Part shown: piece after piece, positions 6,166-49,299 of the stretch
Position numbering within the stretch: position 1 is the stretch's first letter
Layout of the letters: every line of letters begins with the position of its first letter
Virus record (IMG/VR): IMGVR_UViG_3300044542_000402
Strand: one strand, 5' to 3'
Source: an uncultured virus (IMG/VR IMGVR_UViG_3300044542_000402)
Taxonomy: Duplodnaviria; Heunggongvirae; Uroviricota; Caudoviricetes; Herelleviridae
DNA length: 64,000 nucleotides
The notes under the pieces: model-generated
What the model was told of the DNA's origin: nothing
The model's database searches: none
What the model saw: only the letters and a program-made list of their open reading frames with translations
Translations under genes and position numbers: made by a program

Positions 6166-6166
6166 T
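6070..6166 (+). repeat. Imperfect direct repeat copy A (97 bp)
   Basis: GATGCGCGGACGCTGGGCGAGG...GACGACGAGGAGGAGTGGGCCCGGTACCATCAGGGCGGTTGAT. Confidence 0.9.
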
Positions 6167-6746: not shown

Positions 6747-6783
6747 GGAAGTATAGTACCACTATTGATACTGCTTACGGACT

Positions 6784-13938: not shown

Positions 13939-15825
13939 ATGGCTGTCACACCTCCTACTCCGCACCCCCGCTCCACGGGTTCGGCCGGCGGGTTGCCGAA
14001 GAGCACTCCCGGATCCGGAACCGGTGCGCATCCCGGTCGGAGCCGGCACACCGATCCGGATCGGGGACAGACTGAGCCGGGGAGCACCGACGCGCAGAAC
14101 GGGAACCCGCAGGACGCCGGGGACCCCGGCCCCGACCCGCGATCCGATCCGGCACCGACCGCTGACGGCGGATCGCAGGCCACGTCAGGACCGGACTTCC
14201 GGCCCGCCGGCGGCCCGCCGACGTTCTCCGAGGCCGGTGGGCTGTCGGGATCGGCCGCCACCGACGGTACCGGCGGAACCCCCGGTTCCGCCGGAGCCCG
14301 GGGCGTCTCCGGTGGTCCGGGGGCCGGGGCCGGGCACGGACGTGCCGACGTCTCCGGGACCGCCACCGACGTCTCGGCCCCCGACGCCGTCTCCAGGCTG
14401 CGCCACGCCGGCTTCACCGCCGCCGCCGGGGCCCTGGGACTGGGGCGGGCGGCCGGGCATCTGGCCTCCGAGGGGGCGCAGCGGGCCTGGCACTCGATCA
14501 AGAGGCCGTTCATGGCCGGTGGGAGCCGTCTGGCCGTCGTCAACGGCCGCATCTTCGGCAAGGGCTCCCCGTTGGCGAGGGCCACCACCTCGGCCATCGG
14601 GCTCGGGGTGGTCCTCGTGCTGACCCTGCTGCTGGGCACCTCCGTGATCATCACCACTGTCGCCGGTTCGGACGCCGGCGGCGACGATGCCGTCGTGGCC
14701 GACTGCAGGGCGACCGCCGATGCCACCGACGTGGGCGATTACAACGGCAAGGGCGTTCCCGCGACCGCCAAGCCGTGGGTCGCCAACGCCGAGAAGTACT
14801 CCAAGTACCACATCCCGGCCGCCTTCTTCGCCTATATCATGGATCGTGAGAGCGACTTCAACCCCGCCGTCTTCTCCGACGACGTCAACGGGGGCACCTG
14901 GGGGCTGTTCCAGATCAACGCCGAGGAGTGGTCCAAGGTCACCGGCGGAGGATCCTTCAGCTCGCCCGACATCAAGGACCCCATGGTTCACACCCAGTAC
15001 GGCGCGAAGTACTTCGACAACCGGCTCGAGGGCATCAGGGCGATGCGCAAGTCCCACCCCGACGCCGCCTACACCAAGGACCTCACCGAGCTCGAGGACC
15101 TCATGATCGCTCACAACGCCGGCGAGGGGAACCTGCAGAAGTACCCGAACCTCCCGTCGATCACGAAGTCCTACCTGGCCGAGTACAAGCAGAAGTTCCC
15201 CGCCTACGGCGGCGGCGAGGCCTCGGGCTCCGCCGACACGGCGGTCGCCGGCGACGACACGTCGAACGACTCCACCATTCCGACTCTCGACAGTTCCGAC
15301 AGCCAGGGTTGCGACACCTCCAACGCCCAGAACGCCTCCATGAACCTGTCGGCCGCCGGGATGAGCCGGGCCGACGCCCAGAAGCTCATCGACCTCTACA
15401 ACAAGGAGGGCGACGCCTTCCTCGACAAGAAGTACGGCGACGGCGGCGGTCCCGGCAGCTGCGGGTCCAACCACGCCGAGAACTGCGTGTCGTTCAGCGT
15501 CTACTTCCTCAACAAGTACACGACGTTCCAGGGTTACCCTCAGGGCAACGGTGCCGACACCGCCGGGCGTACCGCTGAGATGACCGGACTCACGACGACC
15601 AGCACGCCCAAGCCGTACTCCATCTTCAGCTTCCCCACCTCCAACGTCGGCCACACCGGCGTCGTGCTGGCGGTCAACAATGACGGCTCCCTGCTCATCG
15701 GGCAGGCCGACTACTGCCGCAAGATGGGCAATCTGGAGGTCTACAGCAAGGCGCGTTGGCAGGGGGTCGGGATGAAGTTCGTCGACGTCTCCGGGCTTCT
15801 CAAGAACAAGAACATGGGGAGCTGA
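13939..15825 (+). CDS. Conjugative cell-wall hydrolase: lytic transglycosylase + CHAP domain
   Basis: TM helix; SLT motifs MDRESDFNP, GLFQI, AHNAGEG; CHAP Cys (NCVSF) and His (GHTGVV). Confidence 0.85.
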   Translation: MAVTPPTPHPRSTGSAGGLPKSTPGSGTGAHPGRSRHTDPDRGQTEPGSTDAQNGNPQDAGDPGPDPRSDPAPTADGGSQATSGPDFRPAGGPPTFSEAGGLSGSAATDGTGGTPGSAGARGVSGGPGAGAGHGRADVSGTATDVSAPDAVSRLRHAGFTAAAGALGLGRAAGHLASEGAQRAWHSIKRPFMAGGSRLAVVNGRIFGKGSPLARATTSAIGLGVVLVLTLLLGTSVIITTVAGSDAGGDDAVVADCRATADATDVGDYNGKGVPATAKPWVANAEKYSKYHIPAAFFAYIMDRESDFNPAVFSDDVNGGTWGLFQINAEEWSKVTGGGSFSSPDIKDPMVHTQYGAKYFDNRLEGIRAMRKSHPDAAYTKDLTELEDLMIAHNAGEGNLQKYPNLPSITKSYLAEYKQKFPAYGGGEASGSADTAVAGDDTSNDSTIPTLDSSDSQGCDTSNAQNASMNLSAAGMSRADAQKLIDLYNKEGDAFLDKKYGDGGGPGSCGSNHAENCVSFSVYFLNKYTTFQGYPQGNGADTAGRTAEMTGLTTTSTPKPYSIFSFPTSNVGHTGVVLAVNNDGSLLIGQADYCRKMGNLEVYSKARWQGVGMKFVDVSGLLKNKNMGS

Positions 15826-20806: not shown

Positions 20807-23065
20807 ATGGCCGATCTCAAGTCCAGCATCGTCATCGTCAACGAGTTCTCCGTGCCGAAACCCGGCGGCAGGGGGTCGCGCGGATCCACCCCGGGGGCTT
20901 ATGTCACCCGCTACATGGCCCGTGACGACGCCACTGAGACCCTCGCCCCGGTCCGATACCATCGCACCGACGACTTCATCACCCGTTACATGGCCCGCGC
21001 CTCCGCCACCGAGACGGCCCTCACCCCCGCCCAGCTGCAGAAGGGCCTGCAGCCCACCGGGCTGGGCGGCATCGCCTTCGGCTACGGGTCGATGTCCCTG
21101 TCCCACGACCAGGTGCGGGCCGCTGCGCACGATATCCAGCACCTCTTCGAGTCGGGCCACACCGTCATGAAGACCGTCATGAGTTTCGACGAGGAGTACC
21201 TGCGCACCCACCACCTCATCGACCCCGACTTCCACCTCGTCCACCGGGGGGACTACCGGGGCCACGTCGACCAGATGAAGCTGCGGATGGCCGTGTCCGC
21301 CGGGATGGCCCGGATGTCCCACGCGGGGTTCGACGATCTGAGATGGATCGGGGTCGCGCAGTTCGACACACGCCATGTCCATGTCCATCTGGCCATGGTC
21401 GACGCCGGGGTCGGCCGTCTCATGCCCGACGGCACCCAGCGCGGCAAGCTCCTCGACGTCCACCGGTCACGACTGCGACGGGGCACCGACGCCTTTCTGG
21501 ACGCCAAGTCCAGGGTCGCCCGGCTGTCGGCGGCTTTCGGCTACGAGCGGCGCAACGTCGTCTCCTATGTCAAGCGCTGGGCCCACGAGACGATGGCCAC
21601 TGAGTCCCTGCCCCAGTTCCTGGTCGCCTGCCTGCCCGCCGACAAGCGCCTGTGGCGCGCCGGCTCCCATCACCGGGAGATGCGCAAGGCCGACGCGCTG
21701 GCCCACGACCTCGTCGAACAGGTGCTGGCCCGGCCGGGCTCGCCCATGCCCGCCGCTATGGAGCGGGTCCATGCCTACGCTGACCACCGCCGTGATGCCG
21801 AGGGGCTGTCGTCCCGGCAGTGGTCGAGGCTCGTGGAGCGCGGGCGCGCCGACATCGTGGACCGCGGTGTCAACGGCGTCTACCGGATGATCGCCACCCT
21901 GCCCCCCGATGAGCTGCGGGTGCGCACCCCGATGCTCGATCTCATGAGCACCGACTACCAGCGCCTGGCCGCCCGCACCGGTGCCCGTCACGAGACCGAT
22001 GACGCCGATGACGAGCTCATGGCTTTCGGCATGCGGCTGCGCACCTACGGCTCCCGGCTGCGTCACCATCGCCAGAAGGCCCACGAGTACCGCGAGGCGG
22101 CCCGGGAGTGGGACCGTGCCGACGCCGCCGGCGTCGCCCGGCCCGAGTCGCGTCCCCTGTTCGATCTCTACCGGTTCGAGGAGGAGTATCACGCCGGGCT
22201 GGTGGCCAAGTACCGCCATTTCCTGCCCGTCCTCGGTGCGCTGGACGACTGGCGTCCCCGTATCGAGGCGGCCGCCGATCACGGTCGTGACCTGGTCGGG
22301 CTCATCGAACTGCGGGGCGACACGTCCCTGGGGGCCATGAAGGATCCTGACGTCGCCGAGACCATCGGCCGTCAGGTGTACGGCCGGCCCGGTGGTGCGC
22401 TGCTGACCCGGGGCGCGGCGGGCCGTGCCGTCCTCGACGACCGGATCACCAGGATGCGCGCGTCCCACCGGCGGATGATCACCGACATGGCCGCCGACAT
22501 GGCCGCCGACGGCCTGGTGCTGCGCCCGGCGCGCGACCCGGACGCCGAGGGGCTCATCGCCGTCCTCGACGAGAACGGTGAACCGGCGAGCCCCCTGGAG
22601 GCCGTCGCCGATGACAGTCGAGACTTCTCCCGGGTCCGCGGCCTGGATCTGCATCACATGGGCTACGACTTCTTCTCCGACGTCGAGATCGCCGACGCAG
22701 TCGCCGATCGTTTCACTGCCACGACGCGCCGCCGGCGGGCACTGCTCACCGCCGCCATGGATTATCTGGAGGCCTCCGGGCAGTCCGGAGCCATCGGCAC
22801 CCTGCCGGTCGACGACATCGCCGAGATGGTGCGCTTCGACACCGCCATGGAGGCCCGGCGGCGGCGGACCGGCCGTCCGGTCCTGCTCAGCCGGTTCGCC
22901 GAGCTGCGCGCCGGTGAACAGGCCGACGCCCCGGTCCACCGGCTCGCCGCCACGCCCCTGGACGAGGGGCTGGAGGTGGCGCTGCGCCGGGGCATCGAGG
23001 ACAGTGTGACCCATGAGCCCGAGGACGAGGACGTCGATGAGCCTCGTGGGGAGATTTCAGCGTGA
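20807..23065 (+). CDS. HUH relaxase, MOB_L-like
   Basis: YVTRYMARDDA (candidate catalytic Tyr), VMSFDEEYL, QFDTRHVHVHLAMVD HUH motif. Confidence 0.78.
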   Translation: MADLKSSIVIVNEFSVPKPGGRGSRGSTPGAYVTRYMARDDATETLAPVRYHRTDDFITRYMARASATETALTPAQLQKGLQPTGLGGIAFGYGSMSLSHDQVRAAAHDIQHLFESGHTVMKTVMSFDEEYLRTHHLIDPDFHLVHRGDYRGHVDQMKLRMAVSAGMARMSHAGFDDLRWIGVAQFDTRHVHVHLAMVDAGVGRLMPDGTQRGKLLDVHRSRLRRGTDAFLDAKSRVARLSAAFGYERRNVVSYVKRWAHETMATESLPQFLVACLPADKRLWRAGSHHREMRKADALAHDLVEQVLARPGSPMPAAMERVHAYADHRRDAEGLSSRQWSRLVERGRADIVDRGVNGVYRMIATLPPDELRVRTPMLDLMSTDYQRLAARTGARHETDDADDELMAFGMRLRTYGSRLRHHRQKAHEYREAAREWDRADAAGVARPESRPLFDLYRFEEEYHAGLVAKYRHFLPVLGALDDWRPRIEAAADHGRDLVGLIELRGDTSLGAMKDPDVAETIGRQVYGRPGGALLTRGAAGRAVLDDRITRMRASHRRMITDMAADMAADGLVLRPARDPDAEGLIAVLDENGEPASPLEAVADDSRDFSRVRGLDLHHMGYDFFSDVEIADAVADRFTATTRRRRALLTAAMDYLEASGQSGAIGTLPVDDIAEMVRFDTAMEARRRRTGRPVLLSRFAELRAGEQADAPVHRLAATPLDEGLEVALRRGIEDSVTHEPEDEDVDEPRGEISA

Positions 23066-24303: not shown

Positions 24304-24885
24304 ATGTCCTACATCTTCCGCGGACAGGGTTCGAAGAAGAACGTCAACCTGCTGGCCCGCGTCTACGACTCCAACGTCACCAAGGACGGGAGTGTCCACT
24401 TCATCGACGTCCAGATCGATCACCGCGACGCCGAGCACGTCACGGGCGATCCCCAGAACGATCGGGATCTCCACCTGTCCAGCGTGAGGGACAAGGGGTC
24501 CAAGAGCGGCTGGAATCACAACGCGCCCTATCAGCAGAGCCAGCTCGACAAGATCGTGGAGAGTGCCGGGCCCAACAATCGCCCCATCCTCAACCAGGAC
24601 GGCGAGAAGATCGGCACCGACTACACCGTCAAGGCCAATGTCATGCCGGGCCGGGCCAAGTACTCCCACATCATCAACACCAAGACTGTGGGCCAGTCGG
24701 ACTTCCAGATGGACGATGACACCGTCCAGGGTCAGTACGACACCATGCACAACGCCAAGGAGGCCATCAAGGCCGCTCAGGCGGCCAAGGCGGCCGAGGC
24801 CAAGGCCGCCCCGGCCGCGGAGGCCGAGGTGGAGGCCGAGCCCGAGGTCGCGGCCGAGGAGGAGGAGCTGGAGGCCGGCGTCTGA
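24304..24885 (+). CDS. Hypothetical protein, beta-rich with Ala/Glu tail, likely highly expressed
   Basis: GAGGAG RBS before ATG 24304; strong codon bias; followed by terminator. Confidence 0.75.
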   Translation: MSYIFRGQGSKKNVNLLARVYDSNVTKDGSVHFIDVQIDHRDAEHVTGDPQNDRDLHLSSVRDKGSKSGWNHNAPYQQSQLDKIVESAGPNNRPILNQDGEKIGTDYTVKANVMPGRAKYSHIINTKTVGQSDFQMDDDTVQGQYDTMHNAKEAIKAAQAAKAAEAKAAPAAEAEVEAEPEVAAEEEELEAGV

Positions 24886-24906
24886 TCCCATCCCTGCCGC
24901 CCCCAC

Positions 24907-24945
24907 CGGAACGACCCCCGGATTATCGATCCGGGGGTCGTTCCG
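24907..24945 (+). terminator. Terminator hairpin
   Basis: 17-bp stem CGGAACGACCCCCGGAT/ATCCGGGGGTCGTTCCG. Confidence 0.75.
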
Positions 24946-25036
24946 CGTCCGGGGATCGTTCATCGGGTCGATGATCCGGATCGTGATTACTGATAGACTT
25001 CTGACTGGTATTCCAGACCAATCGAAAGGATCGGAC

Positions 25037-26839
25037 ATGGCCGTGGATCAGATGGTCGATGACACCGGGACCGCCGATGCCATCGACCCTGTCGTCTACC
25101 CCCAGCTGGCCTCCCTGGCAGCGCCGCTGGCCCGCCCCGAACGCGAGATCGTGGGCCGGGAGCACGAGATCGACACCCTGCTGGCCTCCATGGACCGTCC
25201 TGAACTCTGCAACGCCGTGCTCATCGCCGAGCCGGGGTCCGGCAAGACGGCGCTCGTCCAGGCCACCATGCTGGCTGATCCCGACCGGCGCTACCTGGAG
25301 GTCGACCCGGCCCGGATGATGGCCGAGGCCGGGTCCCCCGAGATCATGGCCAGCCTCCTCAAGGACCTCTTCGACGAGGCCGAGCGCTATGTCCTGGCCG
25401 AGGGCCGTCAGCTCGTCATGTTCATCGACGAGTTCCATCAGATCGTCCAGCTCTCCGGGGCCGCGGTGGAGGCCATCAAGCCCATCCTCGCCGCCTCCGG
25501 GGCCCGCGGCATCCGGGTCATCGCCGCCACGACCTTCGACGAGTTCCACAAGTACATCAGCCCCAACCAGCCACTGGTCGAGCGCCTGCAGCGCATCAAC
25601 CTCGCCCCGCCCGACGAGGCCGCCACCGTGCGCATCCTGCGCGGCATGGCCGAGCGCTACGGGGTCGCCGACCAGTTCCCCGACGACCGGCTGTTCCAGC
25701 TCATCTACGCCGACACCGAGCGCTTCCAGCCCGCCAGCGTCCAGCCCCGCAAGTCGATCCTCGTGCTGGACGCCATGGTCGGCTGGCACCGTCACAGCGG
25801 GGTCCGTATCGACCGGGCCCTGCTCTCCCGGGTTCTCGAGGAGTCGGTGGGCGTCAATGTCGCCATGACGGTCGACGGTGCGGGCATCAAGACCGAGCTG
25901 GACAGGAGGGTCATCGCCCAGGATCTGGCCACCAGTGTGTTGAGCCGCCGGCTCCAGTTGTCGGTGGCCGATCTCAACAATCCGGGCCGTCCCCAGGCGA
26001 GCTTGTTGTTCGCGGGGTCCTCGGGGGTCGGCAAGACCGAGACCACCAAGCAGCTGGCCCGGCTCATGTTCGGCGACGACCAGCGCCATCTCATCCGCAT
26101 GGACATGACCGAGTTCAGCGAGGACGCCAGCCTGCAGACCTTCCGCTCCGTTCTCACCCAGGCCGTGTGGAACACGCCCTACGCCGTCGTCCTGCTCGAT
26201 GAGGTCGAGAAGGCCAGTGCTCTGGTCACCCGCCTGCTTCTGCAGGTCCTCGACGACGGCCGGTTGTCCGACGACAACGGTCGCGAGGTCTCCTTCCTCA
26301 ACACCTACATCGTCATGACCACCAACGCCGGCAGCGAGATCTTCGCCACCATCGCTGACTACGAGGCCAGCGACACCGGCTCGGGCGAGAACCTCGCCGA
26401 CTACGACAAGCTCATCCGCACCTCGCTCACCGAGACCACCGGCGAGAACCGGTTCCCACCCGAGCTGCTGGGCCGCGTCGACGCCATCGTGCCCTTCCAG
26501 CCGCTGTCGCCAGCCACCCAGAAGAAGATCGTCACCGGCAAGGTGCAGGCCCTCATCAACACCGTGCTCGTCAAGCACGGCGTGCGGGTGCGGGTCTCCC
26601 CCCGGGTCATCGACTATCTCATCGAGGACAAGGGCGACACCGACTCCAACGCCGGCGGCGCACGCGCCGCGGTGGCCCGGCTCACCAGCGATGTCACCAC
26701 CGAGATCGCCGTCCATCTCAACCAGCACCCCGCAGACCGCGACATCCGTGTCGACGTGGCCGGGGAACTGGTGAGCAGCAACAAGACGCTGCGGACCTCC
26801 GACGCCCACATCGTCGTCGCCCCCACGGCGTCCCGATGA
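25037..26839 (+). CDS. ClpA/ClpB-like double AAA+ ATPase (600 aa)
   Basis: GREHEI, AEPGSGKT, MFIDEFH, IAATT; GSSGVGKTE, RMDMTEF, LLDEVEKA, LLQVLDDGRL, FPPELLGRVD. Confidence 0.92.
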   Translation: MAVDQMVDDTGTADAIDPVVYPQLASLAAPLARPEREIVGREHEIDTLLASMDRPELCNAVLIAEPGSGKTALVQATMLADPDRRYLEVDPARMMAEAGSPEIMASLLKDLFDEAERYVLAEGRQLVMFIDEFHQIVQLSGAAVEAIKPILAASGARGIRVIAATTFDEFHKYISPNQPLVERLQRINLAPPDEAATVRILRGMAERYGVADQFPDDRLFQLIYADTERFQPASVQPRKSILVLDAMVGWHRHSGVRIDRALLSRVLEESVGVNVAMTVDGAGIKTELDRRVIAQDLATSVLSRRLQLSVADLNNPGRPQASLLFAGSSGVGKTETTKQLARLMFGDDQRHLIRMDMTEFSEDASLQTFRSVLTQAVWNTPYAVVLLDEVEKASALVTRLLLQVLDDGRLSDDNGREVSFLNTYIVMTTNAGSEIFATIADYEASDTGSGENLADYDKLIRTSLTETTGENRFPPELLGRVDAIVPFQPLSPATQKKIVTGKVQALINTVLVKHGVRVRVSPRVIDYLIEDKGDTDSNAGGARAAVARLTSDVTTEIAVHLNQHPADRDIRVDVAGELVSSNKTLRTSDAHIVVAPTASR

Positions 26840-35480: not shown

Positions 35481-37451
35481 ATGACACATCAGACCATGTC
35501 ACCTGGGCTCATCGCCCAGCTCGTCGATCCCGCTGATGCCACGTTGTCGGCCGGCTCCAACGTCGAGGTGGACTGGCGCTGTGACGTCGACTCTCGCCAC
35601 GTGTGGCGTGCCAGCCCCAGCACTCGGCGACGCAGCCCCCGGTGCCCGGTGTGCCTCAACAAGATCGTCATCCCCGGTGTCAATGATCTCGCCACCACCG
35701 ATCCCGATCTTGCAGGGCAGCTGATCGACCCGCAGGACGGCCGCCTGGTGCACCGCGGATCTCACAGGACTGTGACGTGGCGGTGTTCGGAGGGTCATCA
35801 GTGGCCGGCCTCGGTGGTCTCGCGGGTCCGTCTGGGGTCGGGGTGTCCCTACTGCTCGGGCCGGTTGCCCGTCCCTGGTGTCAATGATCTGGCCACGACC
35901 CATCCGGATCTGGCGGCCCAGTTGGCCGACCCCGAACAGGCCAGGACTGTGGGGGCCGGATCGGGCAAGAAGTTGGTGTGGCGCTGCACCGCTGATCCGA
36001 GTCACACCTGGGCCGCACCGGTGCGCAATAGAACTGGCAAGGGCACCGGGTGTTCGATCTGCTCGAAGCATGGGCACAGATCATCACGACGCCATTCCAC
36101 GCTCGGTGAGCTCGGATCACCGTTGCTCGCCGACGCCGTCGACCCGGAGATGGCGGCCGGACTGTCGAGCGGGTCGGGCCGGGTCATCGCCTGGCACTGC
36201 CGTACCTGTTCGGTGCCGCACGAGTACCAGATGAGTGTGCGGCACCGCGTGCGCGGCCAGGGATGTCCCGTGGCGGCTGGGGTCCAGATTCTTCCCGGCG
36301 TCAATGACCTGGCCACCACGCATCCTGATTTGGCGGATCAACTGGCCGATCCCAGTTCAGCGACCAGGCTCTCGCGAGGGTCGACAGTCATTGTCGAGTG
36401 GCGCTGTGGCAAGGGCCATGTGTGGTCAGCCCCCGTCTACGCCCGTGTCGCCGGCAACGGCTGCCCGCAGTGCTGCCCGATCGGCTCCTCCTACGGGGAG
36501 CAGGAGGTGCTGGCGACGCTTCGCGAGCTGGACCCGCAGGCCTGTCATCGTGCTCGGGTTCCGCGATCAGGACGTCATCCGATGGAGATCGATATCGTGG
36601 CCGGGGATCTGGGCGTGGAGTTCAACGGCACCTTCTGGCACAGCGAGGCAACCGATCCCAGCCGAACCAGATGCGCGGGAAAGGTCGCCGCCATCCGGAA
36701 CGCCGGACTGCGCCCATTGATCGTCTGGGAGGACGATTGGGCGGATATGGATCGTCGTGCTGTCCTGGTGACGATGATGGCTCATCGGCTGGGACGTCTC
36801 GACCGGTTGGCCGACGCTATGACGGTCGCCGGCGTCGGGGATCACTTCGATCCCCGATTCGCTGAACACCGCGGAGCCCGGACGCTCGATGTGGTCAGGA
36901 TTCCCGCGGCTCAGGCCGATGAGTTCTTCACCCGCACCCATGTCCAGGGCCCGGTGAGGTTGTCGATCGCCTATGCCCTTCTCGATGAGAACGATGAGCC
37001 CCGCGCCGTTCTCGGCCTGCGCTCGTTCCGGCACAACGCTCGGGCCCACCGGGCCTCGGGGCAGTGGGAGATCCAGCGCTATGCCACGCTCGGCATCATT
37101 CCGGGTGGCTTCACCCGTCTTCTGACCCATGCGGCAGCAGATCTCCGGAATCAGGGCGAGGACATTCGGCAATGGGTCACCCTCTCGGCCAACGACTCGT
37201 CGCAGGGCGATCTCTACGCCGTGTCCGGGTTCAGCATCGACGGTGCCGTACCTCCTTCCTACTGGTACACCGGCGGTCCGCTGAGATCCCGTCGCGCGGC
37301 CAAGGAGGGCTTCCAGCGCCGTCGGTTCCGTGAGGATCCCAAGCTCGTCTGGGACGAGTCGTGGACCGAGCACGAGGCGGCGGCCGCCAATGGCCTGTTC
37401 CGCATCTACGACGCCGGGAAGACCCGATGGGTCAAAGACGTCGTCACATGA
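35481..37451 (+). CDS. Paralogous zinc-ribbon repeat (5x) / Hef-like nuclease protein
   Basis: Same architecture; GVEFNGTFWHS, VWEDDW, near-identical C-terminus. Confidence 0.8.
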   Translation: MTHQTMSPGLIAQLVDPADATLSAGSNVEVDWRCDVDSRHVWRASPSTRRRSPRCPVCLNKIVIPGVNDLATTDPDLAGQLIDPQDGRLVHRGSHRTVTWRCSEGHQWPASVVSRVRLGSGCPYCSGRLPVPGVNDLATTHPDLAAQLADPEQARTVGAGSGKKLVWRCTADPSHTWAAPVRNRTGKGTGCSICSKHGHRSSRRHSTLGELGSPLLADAVDPEMAAGLSSGSGRVIAWHCRTCSVPHEYQMSVRHRVRGQGCPVAAGVQILPGVNDLATTHPDLADQLADPSSATRLSRGSTVIVEWRCGKGHVWSAPVYARVAGNGCPQCCPIGSSYGEQEVLATLRELDPQACHRARVPRSGRHPMEIDIVAGDLGVEFNGTFWHSEATDPSRTRCAGKVAAIRNAGLRPLIVWEDDWADMDRRAVLVTMMAHRLGRLDRLADAMTVAGVGDHFDPRFAEHRGARTLDVVRIPAAQADEFFTRTHVQGPVRLSIAYALLDENDEPRAVLGLRSFRHNARAHRASGQWEIQRYATLGIIPGGFTRLLTHAAADLRNQGEDIRQWVTLSANDSSQGDLYAVSGFSIDGAVPPSYWYTGGPLRSRRAAKEGFQRRRFREDPKLVWDESWTEHEAAAANGLFRIYDAGKTRWVKDVVT

Positions 37452-37597: not shown

Positions 37598-40500
37598 ATG
37601 GAGAACAGCCACGGAATGCTCCGCTACCAGCGCGAGTTCATCGTCCACCAGGTCATCACGAGGGCCCGCCGGCAGACCCGCACCACCCTGCCGCTGTCGA
37701 CGGGCCGGGCCGTGCGCGAGCGCGTGGAGCAGCTCGGCGGGCCCCGGGTCATGACCGGGGACCGGGAGGCCGACGACAAGGGGTTGGGCGACTTCCTCGA
37801 CGCCCTCGACCAGGCCATGACCGAGATCGTCCCCGGCTACATCTCCCCGTTCGCCACCCACGATCGCACCGACCCCGCTCTGCGATCCATGACGCAGGCC
37901 TTCAACAAGGGCACGGATCTCCATCGAGGCCCCGACGGGCGGGTCGTCGCCAGCGGATCATTGCCCTTGTCGCCCTACGACCCCCGGTGGTCCGGACGGG
38001 CCAGTGTCCGGGCCGCCGGCACCGCGCTGTCCTACATCCATGCCGACGACATCGACGTCCTGGCAGACGGCCGTCCCGATCTGGCCTGTGAGGAGGTCGC
38101 CGACAACGCCCGGGTCTTCCACACCGAGGTCGACCGTGACGGCATCCGCAGGTCCGTGGCGGCCGGGACCGCCCGTTCCGATGAGGACGCCGCCGGTCTC
38201 ACCGAGCTGGCGACCCACATGAGCGAGCGCGAGTACGCCCGGTGCCGCGACTGGGTCCTCGACGGCGGCCGGACGCTCGACTCCGACGGGCGCACCGGCC
38301 CTGTCGACCGCACCCGGTTCATGAGCCGGGCCGCGCTGCGCCGCTCGCTGGCCGTCCTCGACGATCTGGACGCCCAGGGCATCGACTACGAGATCAGCCC
38401 CGATCTTCATCCCGGGCAGATCAAGGCCCGGCTGGCCGACTCCGGCATCGAGATCCGCCTGTCCGACGTCGTCGATCCCACCCGTCCCGGCGGGCGCAAT
38501 GCCGAGACCTACGTGGGATCGCGCATCTACGACGACGGCGTCGTGAGCTACTACGCGGTCTCCGGGGGACGCGGCCAGGCCACCACCAACTACTCCCCCA
38601 CCCCTGCCGAGGCCGTGGACCTGCTCCATGTCGCCCAGGGCCGCCCGGTCGCCCGGCACGATCGCCCCGACATCACGATCGGGACGGCCGTCGCACCCAC
38701 CGGCGGAACGCGTTCGGGCACCCGGCGGCGCAGTGACGCCTACCTCGATCCGTCCCGCGGCAAGACGGCCATGTTCGCCGCCACCACGACCCGGGGCCGT
38801 ACCGGGCGCGAGACCGTCTTCATCCATCGCGACGCCGCCGACCACACCCTGCCCGAGTACCGCAGCCCGGAGACGACCCGGGACTACCTGCAGACCATGG
38901 TCTCCAGCGCCCGGGCCAACTTCATCGCCGAACTGGGTGTCGACCGGCTCATCGAGGACTACCGCCGTCAGGTGCGCGACGAGCTGGCCAGCCCCGATCA
39001 GGTCGAGATGCCCGAGTTCTCCGGCGACACCGAGATCGCCGCCATCCAGCGCTCCTACTGGGACGTGCTCACCGGGGCCCGCACCACCCTGCTGCGACCC
39101 GGGGCCACCACCGAGATGGCCGAGGCCCGTCTCGGCGAGATCGGCGAGACGACGCCCGACCTGGGCAATCTGGCCTACACCGGATCGGCCGAGGAGCAGA
39201 TCCGGGCCCACGCCTTTGACGCGGTGGGCGAGCTCATCGGCACCTTCGAGCCCGAGCCCCACCTGGTCGGCGACCAGTGGGTCGACCAGCGGTTCGATCC
39301 GATCCGCGTCGTCCGGTACGCCGACTCCTCGGAGAACCGGTGGACCACGCTGGACTCCCTGGCCGCGGCCTGCCGCGACCTGTCCGCGGAGCCCGAGACG
39401 ATCGACGGCGTCGAGATCACCCGTCCCCGTCCCATCGGTCCCGGCGAACTGCTGGGCACCGGGTTCGAGCACGACCGCTTCGCCGACCGCCTCGTCCGCT
39501 TCTCCCCCACCGACGCCCATCCGATCGAGACCGACCCCTCCCCGTTCATCCGTGCGATGGGCGAGGAGGTCCGCGGTGCACTGGAGCGCAACGCCGTGAC
39601 CCCCGGCGACATCCTCATCGACGACTCCGGGGTCATCGAGTGGCACGGTCGCAAGGTCTTCAACCGCGACGTCGCCCGCTCGGCCTCCGGACGCGACCCG
39701 GTCGAGGTCACCGGGGTCATCGGCCAGGTCTTCGCCCCTGGCGACCACGGCGAGATCGCCACCCGCTTCGCCTCCGGGGACAACTCCCTCATCGTGCCCG
39801 GGTACCGGGCCCGTATCGCCGCCCAGCGGCCCGGGGAGCATTTGTCCGTCGAGGAGCGTACCCTGCTGCGCGGCTACCGCCAGGAGATGGCCGAGGCCAT
39901 CTCACACCGCATCGGTGTCGACGTCCTGTCGGGCCGCGGGTCGGTCGGCGACCCGACCGTTCTCAACCGGGTCTACTCCCGGCTCTACGGCACCGCGCAT
40001 CCTCTCGATCATCTCGAGCGCCACACCGGTCCTGACGGCGAGCTGGATCCCATGACCGCCGCCGTCATCGACACCGAGGCCCGTCGCATCCGCTACGGTA
40101 CCGAGATCGGCGAGGGCTCGACCATCTATGCCGAGTACGCCGCCGCGCACAACAGGGGCACCGATCCGGCAGATGACAACCATCGCGATCCGTGGATGCT
40201 CACCGAGGGCCGCAACATGGTCGTCCTCACCGGTCCGGACCGCGACGGCGTCGCGCCCCCGGCCGGCTATCTCGACCCGATGATGACCGGATCGGCCACC
40301 AATCAGGGCGTCGTGCGCTACCTCACCGCCGGTGCCGAGGTCGCCCCCGACGGGCACATCACCCCCGGCGATCCGGATACCGCGGAGGGCACCCGCGCCC
40401 CGCTCATGCTGCGTCCCGAGCTCGGTACCGTCGGCCACGACGCCTTCGATCGTCAGCTCATGGCCACCACCAACCTCATGGCCGCCTCGCAGGTCACCGG

Positions 40501-43500
40501 GCCGACCGGCACCGCTCTGATGACGTTCGGCGGATGGGGAGCCGATGACGGCATCGTCGTGAGCCGTGAGTTCGCCGAGAGCCACGCCATCAACGGGGCC
40601 GACGACGAGCCCCGGTCCCTGGTTGTCGGTGACAAGCTGTCCGACCTCCACGGCAACAAGGGTGTCATCAGCCTCATCGTCGACCGCCAGATGGACCCGG
40701 ATGCCGCCCGCGAGCAGGGCTTGGAGACCGAGGTCGCCTGGTTCGCCGCCAATCCGGGTATGGATGTCGTGATGAGTCCGTTCAGCCTCATCAGCCGGCG
40801 CAACGCCGGTGCCGGGCGCGAGCTCATCGACAGGCCGGACGACGAGATCGGTCGAGAGCGGGCCCGGCGCGTCTACGAGAACATCGCCGCCGGGCGCATC
40901 GAGTCCGACCCCTACGACGATGATGACGAGGCCACCGTTCTGCTCACCGAGCTGGAGCCCGGCGAGACGATCACCATCACCGACCCCGATGGGACGAGCG
41001 TCGAGGGCACCGTCGTCGGCGATCGCGACGATGCGGCCGGCACCCTGCCGGTCGCCGGGCCCGATGGCGTCCGGTTCGACGTCGAGGCGATCAGCGGCCG
41101 GTCCGTCGACGACCCGGGACGCACCGTCGCCTCGGCCACGCGCCTGGCCGACCGGGTACGGGTCGCGGCCCGCTCGGGTGTGTCCTTCGACGCCTTCGAG
41201 GCCTCCGGGGTCGGTCAGGACTTCGTCGTACCCCACGTCCGGTCTGCCGCGGCAGGGTTCCGCGGCGATCTCGTCGCCCCCGACGGCACCGTTCAGGAGG
41301 CATCCGTCGCCCCGATGCGGTTCATCGTCACCCATATGGCCGTCGACGAGAAGACCCAGATCTACGACGATGAGGCCGTTCTGGCCGGCAAGGGCCGGCG
41401 CGCCAGCTCCCAGCTCGCCTGGGCGCTGGAGAGTGCCGGGGCCGATGCCGTGATGCGCGAGTTCTACGGATCGAACTCGGGCACCGAGGCCGACCTGAGG
41501 GAGTACCTGAGGGTGGCCGGGCTCACCATGGACGCCACCGGGACCCTCGGGGTGCTGGGCACCGACACCGATCTGCTTGACGACCGCACCCTCATCCGCA
41601 CCCCCGAGCTCATCCATCGCCTCGACCGTGACGGCCGCGAGACCGGCCGGGTCGACGTGGCGGCCATGCGGCGCGACTTCGGGGCTCTCATCGGAGCCTC
41701 CGGGGGCGATCTGGAGATTCCGTTCCCGCTCACCACCCCGGCCGGGCAGACCCTGCCGGCCGGCGAGACGCCCGGGACCTACAGGCTGCCGGTGCTCTCC
41801 AGTCATCTGCGGGCCGGGATGGAGTTCGCCGACGGCTCGACGATCACCCACGACTACACCCGCAACTACCTCGACATCTACAACCATGTCGTGGCCTGGC
41901 GGGCCAACCAGGAGCGTCTGGACGCCAACCGCGCCGCGGTGGAGGCCGATGATCAGCCGCTGCTGTCCAACCGGGATCTCGATCGGCTGAGCGGTGACCA
42001 GGCGCGTCACCGGGCCGGTGCCGAACGGGCCTACCGGAGCCTGACCCGCGACATCACCGAACGGGTGCTCAACGGGGCCGAGAAGCGGAACTTCTTCCGC
42101 ACCGGGCTCATGGCCAACCGACTGCCCGACTCGGCCACCGCTGTGTGGACCGCCGACCCCCGCCTGGACATCGACCAGATCGCCGTCGGTTCCGACATGG
42201 CCCGCGAACTCGATCTGAGCGACGGCGACACCACTCTGGTGTGGCGCGATCCGATCCTGCGCGACTCCGGGGTCCGTGCCATGAGGGTCGCCGTCCACGA
42301 CGGTCTCACCGGCGTGGCCATCAACCCGGTGAGCGACAAGAGCTTCGACGGCGACTTCGACGGCGACTCGGTCGCGGTGGTCAAGCTCCATTCGAAGGCC
42401 GCCATCGCCCAGGCCACCGAGAAGCTCGGTGTGGCGGCCAACCTCGTCGACCGCGGAGTCGTCGATGAGAACGACGCGCATCCGCTGGCCACCCAGGTGT
42501 CCCTGGACACGAAGGTGGCGCTGCACCGCAACCCGGAGCTGGCCGACGAGTTCGACTCGGCGGTCCGGGAGGCCAATCGTCTGGCCGCATGGCGCGATCG
42601 GTCCGAGGCCGTCGCCGAACTCCCCGACGACCGGAGCGAGGAACTGGCGGTTCGTGCCGGCCTGTCCGAGATCCGGGCGTCGGCCGCCGATCTCACCGAT
42701 CAGCTCTCGGACCTGTACCGGAGCGCTCAGCGCGGCGAGTTCGGTTCGGCGCTGAGCTTCGCCGACGAGGCCCGGCACGTGGCGTCCATGCAGCGGGTCT
42801 GCGTCGATACCGGGGCCAAGGGCAACAGCGCCAAGCTCGATGATTATGAGAAGGCGCTCCGGTACGGGCTCACCCGCACCGACCAGGAGCAGGCCATGTA
42901 CGCCACCGCCGTCAAGGCCCAGGGCACCGGGCTGGGGGGCTCCTACTCCCAGCGCGCCGTCCGCGCCCTGCGCGACACCGATCTCAAGGCGGTGCTGGAG
43001 CTCACCCAGCCCGTCACCCAGTCCATCCTCCAGGTGAAGCACAACGCCGCCGAGGCCCGCGGCAAGTACGAGGCCCTCCAGGGACCCGGGCGGGCCCTGT
43101 GGCGCGGACAGGCGCTGGCTCATGACCAGGGTCGTTGGGCGGTCGTCCGCGATGCGCAGGGCGAGCCCGTCGCGGCCACCACCGAGGGGTGGAAGCAGCA
43201 GGTCCGCGAGTTCTACACCTCGTCCGACGGGTTCCACGTCCCCTTCGATCCCGAGTACGTCGACCGGATCGCCACGGCGCTGTCCGACGACCAGGGCCGC
43301 ATGCGCAACCTCGAGGAGGATCCCGACCTGGCCGGTCACCTGTTGGATCGGATGGCCTACGGCGGCTCCTTCGAGGACCTCGCGAAGGCCGCGAAGAACC
43401 ATGAGAACCTCTTCGACGGGCACGGGGCCGAGCTGTTCGCCTGTGCCACCACCCGCCGGGCCCGTGAGCAGGCCGCCCGTGACGTGGCGATCCGGGAGGC

Positions 43501-43735
43501 GATCGATGACATCCCGCCGTGGGAGCGTGACCTCGATCAGGCCGCGCTCGACACCCCGGTGAGTGCGCCGGTCGCACCCTCGCCGGCCGTCACCGCCCCT
43601 GACACCCGTGACGGCGGCACCCTGCGCGGCGCGAACCGGCGCAGCCGGTACGCACCCACCCTGTCGATGGCCGGGACACGGACTCCTGTGTTCACCGACA
43701 CCGAGTCCGAGGACGACCAGGAGATGGAACTGTGA
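37598..43735 (+). CDS. Single-chain two-barrel DNA-dependent RNA polymerase (fused minimal beta+beta', NCgl1702-like)
   Basis: beta motifs GWGADDGIVVS, GDKLSDLHGNKGVIS (40628-40672), DVVMSPFSLISRRNAG, HMAVDEK, AWALES; beta' motifs FFRTGLMANR, WRDPIL, SFDGDFDGD (DFDGD 42353-42367), TGAKGN, bridge-helix-like TAVKAQGTG, trigger-loop-like QPVTQSILQVKH. Confidence 0.9.
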   Translation: MENSHGMLRYQREFIVHQVITRARRQTRTTLPLSTGRAVRERVEQLGGPRVMTGDREADDKGLGDFLDALDQAMTEIVPGYISPFATHDRTDPALRSMTQAFNKGTDLHRGPDGRVVASGSLPLSPYDPRWSGRASVRAAGTALSYIHADDIDVLADGRPDLACEEVADNARVFHTEVDRDGIRRSVAAGTARSDEDAAGLTELATHMSEREYARCRDWVLDGGRTLDSDGRTGPVDRTRFMSRAALRRSLAVLDDLDAQGIDYEISPDLHPGQIKARLADSGIEIRLSDVVDPTRPGGRNAETYVGSRIYDDGVVSYYAVSGGRGQATTNYSPTPAEAVDLLHVAQGRPVARHDRPDITIGTAVAPTGGTRSGTRRRSDAYLDPSRGKTAMFAATTTRGRTGRETVFIHRDAADHTLPEYRSPETTRDYLQTMVSSARANFIAELGVDRLIEDYRRQVRDELASPDQVEMPEFSGDTEIAAIQRSYWDVLTGARTTLLRPGATTEMAEARLGEIGETTPDLGNLAYTGSAEEQIRAHAFDAVGELIGTFEPEPHLVGDQWVDQRFDPIRVVRYADSSENRWTTLDSLAAACRDLSAEPETIDGVEITRPRPIGPGELLGTGFEHDRFADRLVRFSPTDAHPIETDPSPFIRAMGEEVRGALERNAVTPGDILIDDSGVIEWHGRKVFNRDVARSASGRDPVEVTGVIGQVFAPGDHGEIATRFASGDNSLIVPGYRARIAAQRPGEHLSVEERTLLRGYRQEMAEAISHRIGVDVLSGRGSVGDPTVLNRVYSRLYGTAHPLDHLERHTGPDGELDPMTAAVIDTEARRIRYGTEIGEGSTIYAEYAAAHNRGTDPADDNHRDPWMLTEGRNMVVLTGPDRDGVAPPAGYLDPMMTGSATNQGVVRYLTAGAEVAPDGHITPGDPDTAEGTRAPLMLRPELGTVGHDAFDRQLMATTNLMAASQVTGPTGTALMTFGGWGADDGIVVSREFAESHAINGADDEPRSLVVGDKLSDLHGNKGVISLIVDRQMDPDAAREQGLETEVAWFAANPGMDVVMSPFSLISRRNAGAGRELIDRPDDEIGRERARRVYENIAAGRIESDPYDDDDEATVLLTELEPGETITITDPDGTSVEGTVVGDRDDAAGTLPVAGPDGVRFDVEAISGRSVDDPGRTVASATRLADRVRVAARSGVSFDAFEASGVGQDFVVPHVRSAAAGFRGDLVAPDGTVQEASVAPMRFIVTHMAVDEKTQIYDDEAVLAGKGRRASSQLAWALESAGADAVMREFYGSNSGTEADLREYLRVAGLTMDATGTLGVLGTDTDLLDDRTLIRTPELIHRLDRDGRETGRVDVAAMRRDFGALIGASGGDLEIPFPLTTPAGQTLPAGETPGTYRLPVLSSHLRAGMEFADGSTITHDYTRNYLDIYNHVVAWRANQERLDANRAAVEADDQPLLSNRDLDRLSGDQARHRAGAERAYRSLTRDITERVLNGAEKRNFFRTGLMANRLPDSATAVWTADPRLDIDQIAVGSDMARELDLSDGDTTLVWRDPILRDSGVRAMRVAVHDGLTGVAINPVSDKSFDGDFDGDSVAVVKLHSKAAIAQATEKLGVAANLVDRGVVDENDAHPLATQVSLDTKVALHRNPELADEFDSAVREANRLAAWRDRSEAVAELPDDRSEELAVRAGLSEIRASAADLTDQLSDLYRSAQRGEFGSALSFADEARHVASMQRVCVDTGAKGNSAKLDDYEKALRYGLTRTDQEQAMYATAVKAQGTGLGGSYSQRAVRALRDTDLKAVLELTQPVTQSILQVKHNAAEARGKYEALQGPGRALWRGQALAHDQGRWAVVRDAQGEPVAATTEGWKQQVREFYTSSDGFHVPFDPEYVDRIATALSDDQGRMRNLEEDPDLAGHLLDRMAYGGSFEDLAKAAKNHENLFDGHGAELFACATTRRAREQAARDVAIREAIDDIPPWERDLDQAALDTPVSAPVAPSPAVTAPDTRDGGTLRGANRRSRYAPTLSMAGTRTPVFTDTESEDDQEMEL

Positions 43736-45462
43736 GTACCGATCGCCAGGAGCCCCGCGACGGGCTCACCGCCGCCGACTGGCAGGCCATGAATGGTGCC
43801 GAGGACGCCCGCCAGTCCCGATGGCTGGCCAATCAGCGGGTGATGAACGGCGACGACGAGCCGAACGTGCCGGCACCGGTACGCACGCGCCGTGGGCCGT
43901 CCCGTCGTGGGAGTGACGGCCCGGGTCCCGGGGAGGAGGCTGGAAAGATTCCAGCCCCCGACTGGGAGAGACTGTGGGACAGGTGGGGCCTCCCCTCTCA
44001 GAAGGGATGGGCCGAGGCGCGCGATCTCCGCGCGAGAGAGGCCATCGCCGCCAAGCGCCGCGAGGATCGGAGTCCCTCCGAGTCGCTGCTGCTGGCCCGG
44101 TCCCGGGCCAGCGACACCGGGCGGCGCTACGTCGCCGCCCTGGCGGCCGCCGGCCAGTTCGTCCCCGGGGTGACCCGCGATCAGCGCCGTGAGACGATCC
44201 GGGCGAATCACGACCGGTACGCCCGGGCCATGATGGCGGTGGCCATGGAGCCGCTCAAGGACGGGGTGGACACCGATTCCCTCATCGAGAGCCTCGGCAT
44301 CATGACCGTCATGTCGGCGCTCTCCCCCACCTTCCGTCACCAGGTCGGCGATCATTTCAATCCTGTCCGCCGCGCCGTCGTGCGCCGCATTGACCGCCAG
44401 GCCGCGATCGACATGTACAACCGGCGCACCGACGACAAGTCCCCCTCGAAGGTCCTGCGCCGGCGCTACGACGCCATGATGGAGCGCAACCCCGATTACG
44501 TGGAGCCCCTCACCCCCACGGCCGTCGGTCTCACCGAGGTCGCGCTGCTGCGCGACGCCGCCGACCGGATGCGCCGTCCCGGCGTCGACGCCGACGAGAT
44601 CCGTCGTATCGACGGCGAGTACCGGGCCACCGTCGCCGAGCTCTACGAGCAGGCCGCCGCCGACGGCCTGGACCCCGAGCGGACCGTCGCGGTGAGCCGC
44701 CGGGTCCTGGCCGAGCAGATGATCCAGGACCCGGATCTCGCGCCTCTCATCACGGGGCTGTCCGAGGGATCCGTACGGGTGCATGTCGAACAGATCCCTC
44801 AGCGCGGGCGTCATCACAGGACTGTCGCCACGCTCGTCCACGACGACGGGACCGAGGCCGACCTGTCGACGCGCGGCGTCTCGGAGCGGGGATCCCGTAT
44901 CGAGTCGGGCTACACGCTGCGTCCGCCCCGGTCGATCGACGCCCACGAGCGCGTCATCGAGGCCACCGTCGTGGATCAGATCGTGCCGTCCAGCGTCACG
45001 AGGGGCACCGCCGATCCTGTGCGCACCCCGGTGTCGGTCCGTACCGATGTCCTTGAGAACTACGTGTGCGGACGCACCGCCGACGGGGCGGCCTTCGGGC
45101 CGGCCGGAGCGCTGATGGCGGCCATGAGGGCCGACGGGCAGGATGCCGGGGCGGCCCGGCGCGCCTACAGCCACGGTCTCGTCGCCGCCGTCCGGGCCGC
45201 CAGGTCGGTTGAGCCCGAGCGCATCGACGCCTGGCTGGGGGACCTCGGCACATTCACCGACGAGTTCGAGGCCCGTGCCGAGGCCGACTCCCGGACCGCC
45301 ACGGATCTTCTCGCGGCCCATATCAGGGACCGTCGCGACCGGACCGCCGGGATGCCGCGGTCCGGACTCACGCCGGTCGAGCCGTCGGACGTCGAGGCAG
45401 CCGATGACGAGCCCACCGTCATCATCCCCACCGTCGAGGATCCCGGACCCGACATCGCCTGA
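43732..45462 (+). CDS. Hypothetical helical protein translationally coupled to RNAP gene
   Basis: GTGA overlap; 576 aa with element-like codon usage. Confidence 0.7.
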   Translation: MSTDRQEPRDGLTAADWQAMNGAEDARQSRWLANQRVMNGDDEPNVPAPVRTRRGPSRRGSDGPGPGEEAGKIPAPDWERLWDRWGLPSQKGWAEARDLRAREAIAAKRREDRSPSESLLLARSRASDTGRRYVAALAAAGQFVPGVTRDQRRETIRANHDRYARAMMAVAMEPLKDGVDTDSLIESLGIMTVMSALSPTFRHQVGDHFNPVRRAVVRRIDRQAAIDMYNRRTDDKSPSKVLRRRYDAMMERNPDYVEPLTPTAVGLTEVALLRDAADRMRRPGVDADEIRRIDGEYRATVAELYEQAAADGLDPERTVAVSRRVLAEQMIQDPDLAPLITGLSEGSVRVHVEQIPQRGRHHRTVATLVHDDGTEADLSTRGVSERGSRIESGYTLRPPRSIDAHERVIEATVVDQIVPSSVTRGTADPVRTPVSVRTDVLENYVCGRTADGAAFGPAGALMAAMRADGQDAGAARRAYSHGLVAAVRAARSVEPERIDAWLGDLGTFTDEFEARAEADSRTATDLLAAHIRDRRDRTAGMPRSGLTPVEPSDVEAADDEPTVIIPTVEDPGPDIA

Positions 45463-48163: not shown

Positions 48164-48574
48164 GACGGCTCCTTGCGGATCAGCATTCGGATGACGATCC
48201 AATTGTCTCACAGATGAGGAGATCAGGGAACGGGGCAGGCATGACAACGGACTCCGGTTGATGTCGGGGACCGTGACGGACCGGCGGGGGGATGTGGGAC
48301 AGCCCTGCGTACACGGGGACAGCCGTGCCGCGAGGAAGGCCGTCGACGATTTGCCGTAATAATCCCCGTGCCCGCCTGCCCTGGTGAAGGAGGACGTGGG
48401 GAACCGCGATGATCAGTGTAAGGGAGTGATGGAGAGTGCTGGTCTCGCATATATGAGAATGATGATTTTGTAGTACCATTTACGATCTGCGGGACGACGG
48501 ATTGATCATCACGGAGGTCTTTTCCACAGGGAGGGGCAATTTATACGGAATGAATGAGCTTTGCTAATCCAGGC

Positions 48575-49115: not shown

Positions 49116-49299
49116 AGCGGGTCTGAGAAACCAGTTCTCATAAGGAACGACCCACCTCGTTCGCGAGAGGTGGCGTGTGACTGAGCACAAGACCGTCGGT
49201 GTCTATCGCAGAACTGATGTTAATGTGGTTCTGACAAGGGACGATGACACCGCGAGCGGTCCCCGGCTCTCACCGGGGCCTACCACCGCTCGCGGTGCG
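49116..49299 (-). promoter_or_regulatory. CRISPR leader 1
   Basis: Opposite the degenerate end; motifs shared in register with leader 2. Confidence 0.8.

Follow-up and report, generated by a model that had tools for sequence, protein, structure and literature searches.

A predicted single-chain RNA polymerase of the multisubunit type, encoded beside VirD4 in a Gram-positive transfer module

Why would a DNA element that moves between Gram-positive bacteria carry an RNA polymerase (RNAP) of its own? The question is raised by a gene of 2045 codons lying in a stretch of 64,000 nucleotides (IMG/VR record IMGVR_UViG_3300044542_000402), the whole of which is called the window below. An earlier reading, made from the letters of the window alone (the sequence-only reading), had proposed that this gene encodes a single-chain RNAP with a beta-type half preceding a beta'-type half, and that a conjugative element carries it. 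Alignment, structural models and matches to solved structures all back a single-chain, beta-then-beta' two-barrel homologue with an intact catalytic set. Both its identity as an RNAP and its setting in a transfer module are supported, and on balance we favour, with some reserve, the view that the protein is an active DNA-templated RNAP, predicted from sequence and models to work without sigma or alpha, and that it is a core part of a Gram-positive conjugation module.

The polymerase gene (Table 1) starts with ATG, about 8 nt behind an AGGAG-like ribosome site, and ends in a GTGA overlap, where its stop codon shares bases with the GTG start of the gene that follows. Every motif named in the sequence-only reading is found in it, in the order given there. 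The beta-like module holds Asp 983/984, then GDKLSDLHGNKGVIS (residues 1011-1025) with Lys 1013 and Lys 1021, SPFSLISRRNAG (residues 1060-1071) with SRRN, and THMAVDEK (residues 1245-1252) with HMAVDEK. The beta'-like module holds WRDPILRD (residues 1549-1556) with R-x-P at 1550-1552, FDGDFDGDS (residues 1583-1591) with DFDGD at 1586-1590, a bridge-helix stretch (residues 1767-1793) and the trigger-loop motif PVTQSILQVKH (residues 1805-1815). Pfam recognizes RNA_pol_Rpb1_2 on residues 1538-1608 (29.7 bits against a curated cut-off of 25.3, E 9.4e-7), and Rpb2_6 on residues 1005-1030 falls just under its cut-off (22.1 against 23.4 bits, E 9.4e-5). A sequence search of the PDB returned 16 distinct chains at E<=1, every match lying in the DFDGD region; 8h2n came first (E 4.2e-5, the 71 residues 1525-1595), followed by an archaeal Rpo1N (E 1.3e-4). 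Given the Pfam scores, the 195 homologues described below, the invariance of the catalytic residues and the matches of the models to solved RNAP subunits, this motif set is far beyond chance.

Residues 950-1960 and 1-960 were each aligned with 51 homologues, hand-picked for spread from 269 (identities down to 32% and 20%, respectively), and then folded with AlphaFold. Across the 52 aligned sequences of the 950-1960 region, D984, K1013, K1021, R1067, R1550, P1552, D1586, D1588, D1590, K1741 and K1814 are invariant, and conservation reaches at least 90% at T1807, Q1808, L1811, Q1812 and H1815. Eight residues are given as invariant in all two-barrel polymerases in the part of Ruprich-Robert and Thuriaux (PMC2919709) available to us; equated by motif context, they are D984, K1013, K1021, R1550, P1552, D1586, D1588 and D1590. 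As to the barrel pair on which the sequence-only reading had staked its case, the strand patterns around the catalytic residues of the model (DSSP) fit two small, six-stranded barrels: 21-28, 36-40, 64-67 and 72-79 for the first set, and 558-570, 578-582, 596-600, 610-618, 624-626 and 642-647 for the second (fragment numbering). Sequence and model together thus predict a beta-type barrel with two basic residues and an Asp, and a beta'-type barrel with a DxDxD metal-binding loop. Since only 29 residues separate D984 from K1013, the insert that forms the beta flap (SBHM, sandwich-barrel hybrid motif) is absent. In the model, the long helix that bears the bridge-helix motif leads nearly straight to the trigger-loop motif, and another helix comes after that motif.

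Structure prediction, put forward earlier as a check against RNAP subunits, gave confident models for both parts, with a predicted local distance difference test (pLDDT) of 88.4 and a predicted template-modelling score (pTM) of 0.82 for residues 950-1960, and values of 87.3 and 0.86 for residues 1-960. With the C-terminal model, Foldseek found at least 500 PDB matches at E<=0.001 (best 5x22_D, E 7e-12); the 50 matches listed are all largest-subunit chains, nearly all of them bacterial beta'. VIA-align placed residues 1312-1953 on Rpb1, vaccinia Rpo147, Pol IV NRPD1 and related subunits with Z scores of 14.3-15.1, the root-mean-square deviation (rmsd) being 3-4.5 Å over about 400-530 aligned residues that span nearly the whole target. 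By the same method, residues 950-1327 match residues 676-1341 of E. coli beta (Z 14.4, 212 residues aligned, 24% identity). At the level of profiles, an hhalign comparison of the family with host RpoB (28-sequence alignment) reached E 1.2e-4, significant only around GDK..HMAVDEK, and a forced long alignment was not reliable (probability 35%). These profile comparisons were aimed at the rifampicin pocket, and the insensitivity to rifampicin that the sequence-only reading held to be possible stays a conjecture.

The N-terminal part is less easily placed. The sequence-only reading had found about 950 N-terminal residues unrecognizable; this holds for some 647 of them (residues 1-647), and the fold of residues 648-960 resembles that of beta in its N-terminal half. 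Foldseek was weak on the N-terminal model, its best match being E. coli beta at E 1e-3. VIA-align gave Z>=8 in 207 of 995 chains, and aligned 248 residues of 648-960 with beta 36-686 at Z 12.0 and an rmsd of 3.6 Å. In a search independent of Foldseek, over 48,161 representative chains, the nine best were all second-largest subunits, all matched on residues 648-960: those of bacterial RNAP, vaccinia, Pol IV, Pol III, Pol I, the plastid enzyme, phages AR9 and phiKZ, and African swine fever virus. Residues 1-647, searched against the same chains as part of the 960-residue model, had no match above Z 4.5, and a protein Atlas search with them gave no usable match; this module is nonetheless conserved in all 15 full-length sequences that were aligned.

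Some smaller parts of the chain call for comment. The insert of about 150 amino acids (aa) between SRRN and HMAVDEK (residues 1077-1234) is missing in most homologues, and a 90%-identical relative (P0003) has a different one; the model gives it a few strands and helices with low confidence. By eye, and against the known beta' motifs, we take residues 1498-1521 to be switch-2-like, and residues 890-909 are presumably fork-loop-2-like, again by reference to known motifs. The local match between GYLDPMMTGSATNQG and the fork-loop-2 stretch of RpoB is not significant (E 0.46). The Pro-rich tail (residues 1954-2045) lies outside both models. Of 265 family proteins, 134 end in an acidic tip that is poor in basic residues and has a hydrophobic last residue; among random internal 10-mers the share is 8.7%, a comparison that ignores kinship among the proteins. 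An RG..RRS motif in the tail was considered as a family-wide signal and rejected, being found in only 12 of 51 homologues.

The second part of the question concerns the company that the gene keeps. The co-oriented run with a relaxase (of the MobL family) and VirD4 that the sequence-only reading described is indeed present in the window, where a cell-wall hydrolase, MobL, a ClpB-like ATPase, a 709-aa protein, VirD4, two DUF4379 genes, the polymerase and a 576-aa protein all lie on the plus strand. To judge from a scan with one genome per species, which gave 100 pattern matches and 76 confirmed loci, this is no local accident, because a VirD4 homologue lies directly upstream of the polymerase, on the same strand, in 75 of the 76 related loci; the only exception (L021) is a 5.5-kb contig that holds the polymerase gene alone. 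When the window proteins were compared with these loci by tblastn, the ClpB-like ATPase, the 709-aa protein and the 576-aa downstream protein were each found in 73, a 262-aa ORF (open reading frame) in 36 and MobL in 19, the last two counts being limited by the 10-kb flank. The loci span many actinomycete genera and extend to a Coriobacteriia metagenome-assembled genome (32%) and to Kurthia sibirica (27%). On Gordonia plasmid pGKT2, the plasmid's own annotation reads mobL, then further on AAA ATPase, hypothetical protein, coupling protein and polymerase homologue, and a 55-kb S. aureus plasmid has a 1292-aa coupling protein, two small genes and the polymerase homologue. The conserved module has the order MobL, ClpB-like ATPase, coiled-coil protein, VirD4, polymerase and 576-aa protein. 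Within it, the coupling protein is unusually long, with a 590-residue N-terminal part bearing two transmembrane (TM) helices and, past the recognized ATPase domain, some 290 further C-terminal residues that are highly conserved. The 576-aa neighbour had no match in Pfam, NCBIfam, PADLOC or PHROG, and no usable one in the Atlas.

The family itself is large and its distribution patchy. A word-indexed search that scored 8000 candidates gave 195 homologues at E<=0.001; those listed, 120 in number, measure 1764-2092 aa, and every organism named by its source is an actinomycete. The closest is from Cutibacterium avidum (97%), and those of Kribbella, Actinomadura, Streptomyces, Arthrobacter, Amycolatopsis, Kocuria and others stand at about 48%. 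Among the matches listed, most are called 'hypothetical protein', and UniRef labels some 'DNA-directed RNA polymerase'. When residues 950-1960 were used for an exhaustive HMMER search, 517 clusters (50% identity) came up at E<=0.001, 353 of them at E<=1e-30; the 150 clusters listed are mostly of 1700-2500 aa. In an even sample of the phylum, only one of 401 genomes, the centre genome itself, matched at E<=1e-20 (the tally takes in G003 and G020, neither of which matches). Many homologues are chromosomal, on contigs of several megabases. Among 72,556 plasmids, 13 records match the polymerase: near full-length matches in Streptomyces (49%), Gordonia pGKT2 (36%) and Rhodococcus fascians (36%), and matches to the core only, at 26-28%, in five Staphylococcus and five Lactococcus plasmids. 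The S. aureus homologue (1787 aa, 27% identical, E 6e-40) keeps GDK..HGNK, DFDGD and the trigger-loop motif. The polymerase had no match at E<=1e-3 by tblastn against 50,697 phage records, and none in PADLOC or PHROG.

The proteins of this family combine the fold of the two large RNAP subunits, a complete set of invariant catalytic residues with a trigger-loop motif, and a phylum-wide linkage to VirD4. What could such an enzyme do? Its position directly behind VirD4 in 75 of 76 loci, the arrangement on pGKT2 and on the S. aureus plasmid, and a sporadic spread like that of a mobile gene argue for a role in DNA transfer rather than in housekeeping. The earlier statement that the window holds no alpha or sigma gene stands, at the sensitivity of Pfam, for its 130 ORFs of at least 140 aa, and no conventional primase domain was found among them. 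Elsewhere, incoming strands are primed and transcribed by host RNAP, which uses single-strand origins and single-strand promoters, or are primed by a plasmid primase that is itself transferred. From the parts available of two accounts of transferred plasmid single strands (PMC11541004, PMC9849209), early genes are read from single-strand promoters and conversion to duplex is needed. Most likely, the enzyme would make RNA on the transferred element, as primers for the complementary strand, as early transcripts, or both, and would do so independently of host RNAP. It may act in the donor, or in the recipient after export with the DNA, two sites that the data do not separate.

A bolder version of this reading, which we put forward tentatively and hold to be rather unlikely, is that VirD4 recruits the polymerase for export with the strand, and that in the recipient it primes synthesis and transcribes the first genes from single-stranded DNA. 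The acidic C-terminal tip would then be a possible signal for VirD4, and the ClpB-like ATPase a possible unfoldase; establishment would become independent of the new host's RNAP, of its sigma factors and of the drugs that block them, and the polymerase would be to conjugation what a virion RNA polymerase is to phage infection. The hints towards export, namely a gene beside that of the coupling protein, a ClpB-like ATPase in the module and the acidic tip, are circumstantial. A predicted complex of VirD4 residues 593-1337 with polymerase residues 1945-2045 scored 0.00 (mark 0.32), which is no verdict either way on binding.

Several observations weigh against the favoured reading. No sequence feature points to single-stranded templates; the switch-2-like stretch and the beta'-like alignment across most of Rpb1 would fit transcription of duplex DNA in the donor equally well; and residues 1-647, a third of the protein, have no explanation. 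On Lactococcus plasmid pJM4A, whose 2382-aa homologue belongs to the most distant branch, no coupling protein is annotated within 14 kb. Finally, no VirB4-type ATPase was recognized among the 130 window ORFs of at least 140 aa (Pfam), nor was Pfam AAA_10 (VirB4) found near the polymerase loci of two relatives (G001 and G002). Because of this last point, the transfer apparatus is either atypical or incompletely seen.

The strongest competitor, somewhat improbable in our estimation, is a donor-side transcriptase that would read the transfer and establishment operons of the element from promoters of its own, with no host sigma factor, and would neither be transferred nor prime. YonO, in the portion of PMC5467207 that we could draw on, is a proven single-chain two-barrel RNAP serving a prophage late operon. 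The bridge helix, the trigger-loop motif and the switch-2-like stretch are typical of enzymes that transcribe duplex DNA, the long co-oriented gene run around the polymerase is available as a target, and the 576-aa partner, whose translation is coupled to that of the polymerase, might act as a specificity factor. However, no repeated promoter-like motif was found, the repeats in 10400-49200 being coding repeats and a CRISPR array, with none intergenic; the tie to VirD4, rather than to regulators, is left unexplained; and the polymerase gene would first need the host enzyme for its own expression.

A primase for vegetative or rolling-circle maintenance, supplying lagging- or complementary-strand primers without being specific to transfer, is improbable. 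The 130 window ORFs show no conventional primase domain in Pfam (Toprim, DnaG and primase-polymerase included), and some homologues reside on autonomously replicating plasmids; but the gene travels with the relaxase/VirD4 module and not with replication genes, and many of its copies are chromosomal, on contigs of megabase size. Still less probable is a conflict polymerase, making RNA decoys, copying RNA templates or acting in defence or anti-defence on entry into a new host. The two-barrel class does include RNA-dependent silencing enzymes, and bacterial relatives without a known role exist (PMC2919709, in the part available); here, the polymerase has no PADLOC family, its fold matches are all to DNA-dependent beta or beta' subunits with trigger loop and bridge helix, and no RNA-dependent RNA polymerase appears among the matches listed. 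Finally, a scaffold or pilot protein that has lost catalysis and preserves no more than the polymerase fold would be in keeping with the large N-terminal module and the long coupling protein next door, yet it is hardly credible: in 52 sequences, with identities down to 32%, neither the eight catalytic residues nor the trigger-loop Lys vary, and even the staphylococcal homologue, at 27% identity, keeps the catalytic residues.

Returning to a transfer-linked RNAP as the reading that we favour, how conjugative is the element? It encodes a relaxase and a coupling protein with three VirD4-type Pfam domains (Table 1). Since no VirB4 was recognized and the left end of the element lies outside the window, the label 'conjugative' rests on these two proteins, on the SLT/CHAP hydrolase and on a polytopic membrane protein, and the transfer machine itself may be unusual. 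An 'AAA ATPase' annotated upstream on pGKT2 was considered as a VirB4 and rejected, being UvrD-like. The first frame of the window, open at its 5' end, and a 1388-aa protein with seven TM helices (359-4525) match two pGKT2 genes upstream of mobL (48% and 31%), so the element runs past the left end of the window; in the region of pGKT2 beyond that end lies an 835-aa conserved protein of no recognized family.

Table 1. Position of the polymerase, of its modules and of the neighbouring transfer genes in the window
Feature	Residues	Position (nt)	Strand	Basis
SLT + CHAP cell-wall hydrolase		13939..15825	+	Pfam SLT E 1.6e-10, CHAP E 5.8e-9
MobL-family relaxase		20807..23065	+	Pfam MobL E 1e-68; NCBIfam MobP2 E 2.4e-16, below cut-off
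ClpB/ClpV-like double AAA+ ATPase		24563..26839	+	Pfam AAA_2 E 1.5e-36; NCBIfam ClpV1/ClpB ~4e-73, below cut-offs
709-aa coiled-coil protein, C-terminal TM helix		26959..29088	+	TM scan, 73/76 loci
VirD4/TraG-type coupling protein, 1337 aa		29226..33239	+	Pfam T4SS-DNA_transf, TraG-D_C, TrwB_AAD_bind; NCBIfam CD1115-type VirD4-like
Single-chain RNA polymerase-like protein (P0001), 2045 aa		37598..43735	+	ORF and translation, homologues
N-terminal module, family-specific, confident fold without recognized relative	1-647	37598..39538	+	Alignment, model, structure search
Beta (second-largest subunit)-like module	648-1311	39539..41530	+	Structure matches, hhalign, invariant residues
Variable insert between SRRN and HMAVDEK	1077-1234	40826..41299	+	Alignment, low pLDDT
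Beta' (largest subunit)-like module	1312-1953	41531..43456	+	Pfam, Foldseek, VIA, invariant residues
Pro-rich tail, C-terminus acidic with hydrophobic tip	1954-2045	43457..43732	+	Composition
576-aa protein, start overlaps polymerase stop		43732..45462	+	73/76 loci, GTGA overlap

Two blocks of genes in this region look like later arrivals. Between VirD4 and the polymerase lie two tandem paralogues (33344-35401 and 35481-37451, plus strand), each with five DUF4379 treble-clef zinc fingers. Such genes occur at the VirD4/polymerase junction in only 4 of the 76 loci, and contigs from two other studies align to the window only from 37424 on, just past them. Their matches to PHROG HNH/homing-endonuclease families (E 2.8e-52) suggest that both are inserts of selfish endonucleases. 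Further left, two adjacent tyrosine recombinase genes (8117-9109 and 9184-10449, plus strand), with HicB antitoxin-like and XRE-type helix-turn-helix genes nearby (6166-6762 and 11195-11659, minus strand), separate the seven-TM gene from the rest of the transfer region; the corresponding pGKT2 genes have no integrases between them, and this block may therefore be an insertion.

Downstream of the module, the window holds a CRISPR array (48574-49126, eight repeats with a period of about 72 nt), just right of the point, at about 47.8-48.1 kb, where the contigs of relatives stop matching. Beside the array are type I-U-like cas genes on the minus strand, coding for Cas3 (50334-53705) and for a GSU0053 family protein (54520-55764). 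In a UvrD-family helicase gene (61242-63989, minus strand), the helicase is interrupted at residues 229-288 by a LAGLIDADG domain, probably an intein.

The five Staphylococcus plasmids mentioned above, of 55-65 kb, are typed as non-mobilizable by PLSDB; one of them is NZ_CP150776.1 (S. aureus; L079, 11775-17138). They have a single co-oriented run of genes that codes for a giant coupling protein, the polymerase homologue, a topoisomerase and a lysozyme, and may be unrecognized conjugative plasmids. The accessible part of a review of pWBG4-type staphylococcal plasmids (PMC4993578) mentions no polymerase, and the staphylococcal matches are not assigned here to the pWBG4 family.

How much of this is new? 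Single-chain two-barrel RNAPs of mobile elements were already known, having been noted in silico. The new elements are the fixed place in a conjugation module, the retained trigger loop and the large N-terminal module without a known fold. A literature search, with most subscription journals outside its coverage, found no functional description of NCgl1702-like proteins, in agreement with the sequence-only reading, and no report of a VirD4 linkage of such polymerases; a term search of two surveys of actinobacterial integrative and conjugative elements (PMC9513070, PMC3218068) met no mention of an RNA polymerase. Should it prove active, the enzyme would open to experiment a second lineage of single-chain enzymes that follow the multisubunit plan. 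It retains a trigger loop and large parts of beta and beta', which sets it apart from YonO, but it does without alpha, omega, flap and sigma, and so offers a natural test of which parts the universal transcription core requires for assembly and function. Activity would also mean that a transfer module found across Actinomycetota, and reaching plasmids of Bacillota, has a core function new to conjugation. A polymerase supplied by the element could explain establishment independent of the host, and may offer an orthogonal transcription tool for high-GC bacteria.

It remains to set this family beside the systems already described. At the level of sequence, it fits the published description of NCgl1702-like RNAPs, which the portion of PMC7824862 at hand describes as lacking the SBHM, or flap, in the beta barrel. 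Likened by description only, the two share a single protein, a beta-type barrel placed before a beta'-type one, the missing flap and residence in mobile elements; the VirD4/MobL module, the 647-aa N-terminal module and the trigger loop are absent from that account, as far as it was available.

To our knowledge, YonO of SPbeta is the only characterized bacterial single-chain RNAP of the two-barrel type. It resembles the window protein in having both barrels in one chain, in being encoded by a mobile element and in having no alpha or sigma gene nearby. According to the text available of PMC5467207, it is a proven DNA-dependent RNAP of about 100 kDa with no detectable trigger-loop homology. The window protein, in contrast, has 2045 aa, a trigger-loop motif and long stretches that can be aligned with beta and beta', and its gene stands in a conjugation context, that of YonO in a prophage late operon. 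By tblastn over the 50,697 phage records (E<=1e-3), no similarity to YonO or to phage homologues was found.

With RpoB and RpoC, natural fusions included, the protein shares the order of conserved regions, the catalytic residues, the bridge helix and the trigger loop, with structural Z scores of 12-15. It nevertheless falls far under the NCBIfam cut-offs for these families (28.4 against 819 bits for A', 12.1 against 801 for rpoB, and 16.8 against 5372 for fused RpoBC). It lacks the flap and keeps only about 245 of the roughly 650 N-terminal residues of beta, its bridge helix nearly adjoins the trigger loop, it has an extra module of 647 aa, and no alpha, omega or sigma was found in the window.

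The virion RNAP of Thermus phage P23-45, fused to the tape measure (8h2n), enters the cell with the DNA and reads the pre-early genes, according to the part available of bioRxiv 10.1101/2022.12.01.518664. It is likewise a divergent two-barrel RNAP, and it is the best PDB sequence match; that match covers only 71 residues, and delivery of the window protein is hypothetical; its vehicle would be a type IV coupling protein and not a phage tail. Conjugative systems have their own ways to begin a complementary strand, either through primases such as Sog of ColIb-P9 and TraC of RP4, or through priming by host RNAP at single-strand origins or Frpo-type promoters. By analogy, the job proposed here would be the same as that of the conjugative primases, namely to lay RNA on the incoming single strand so that a duplex is made and early expression begins. 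The window protein differs from these primases in having no Toprim or primase-polymerase domain (Pfam, NCBIfam), and its chemistry would be that of a two-barrel RNAP.

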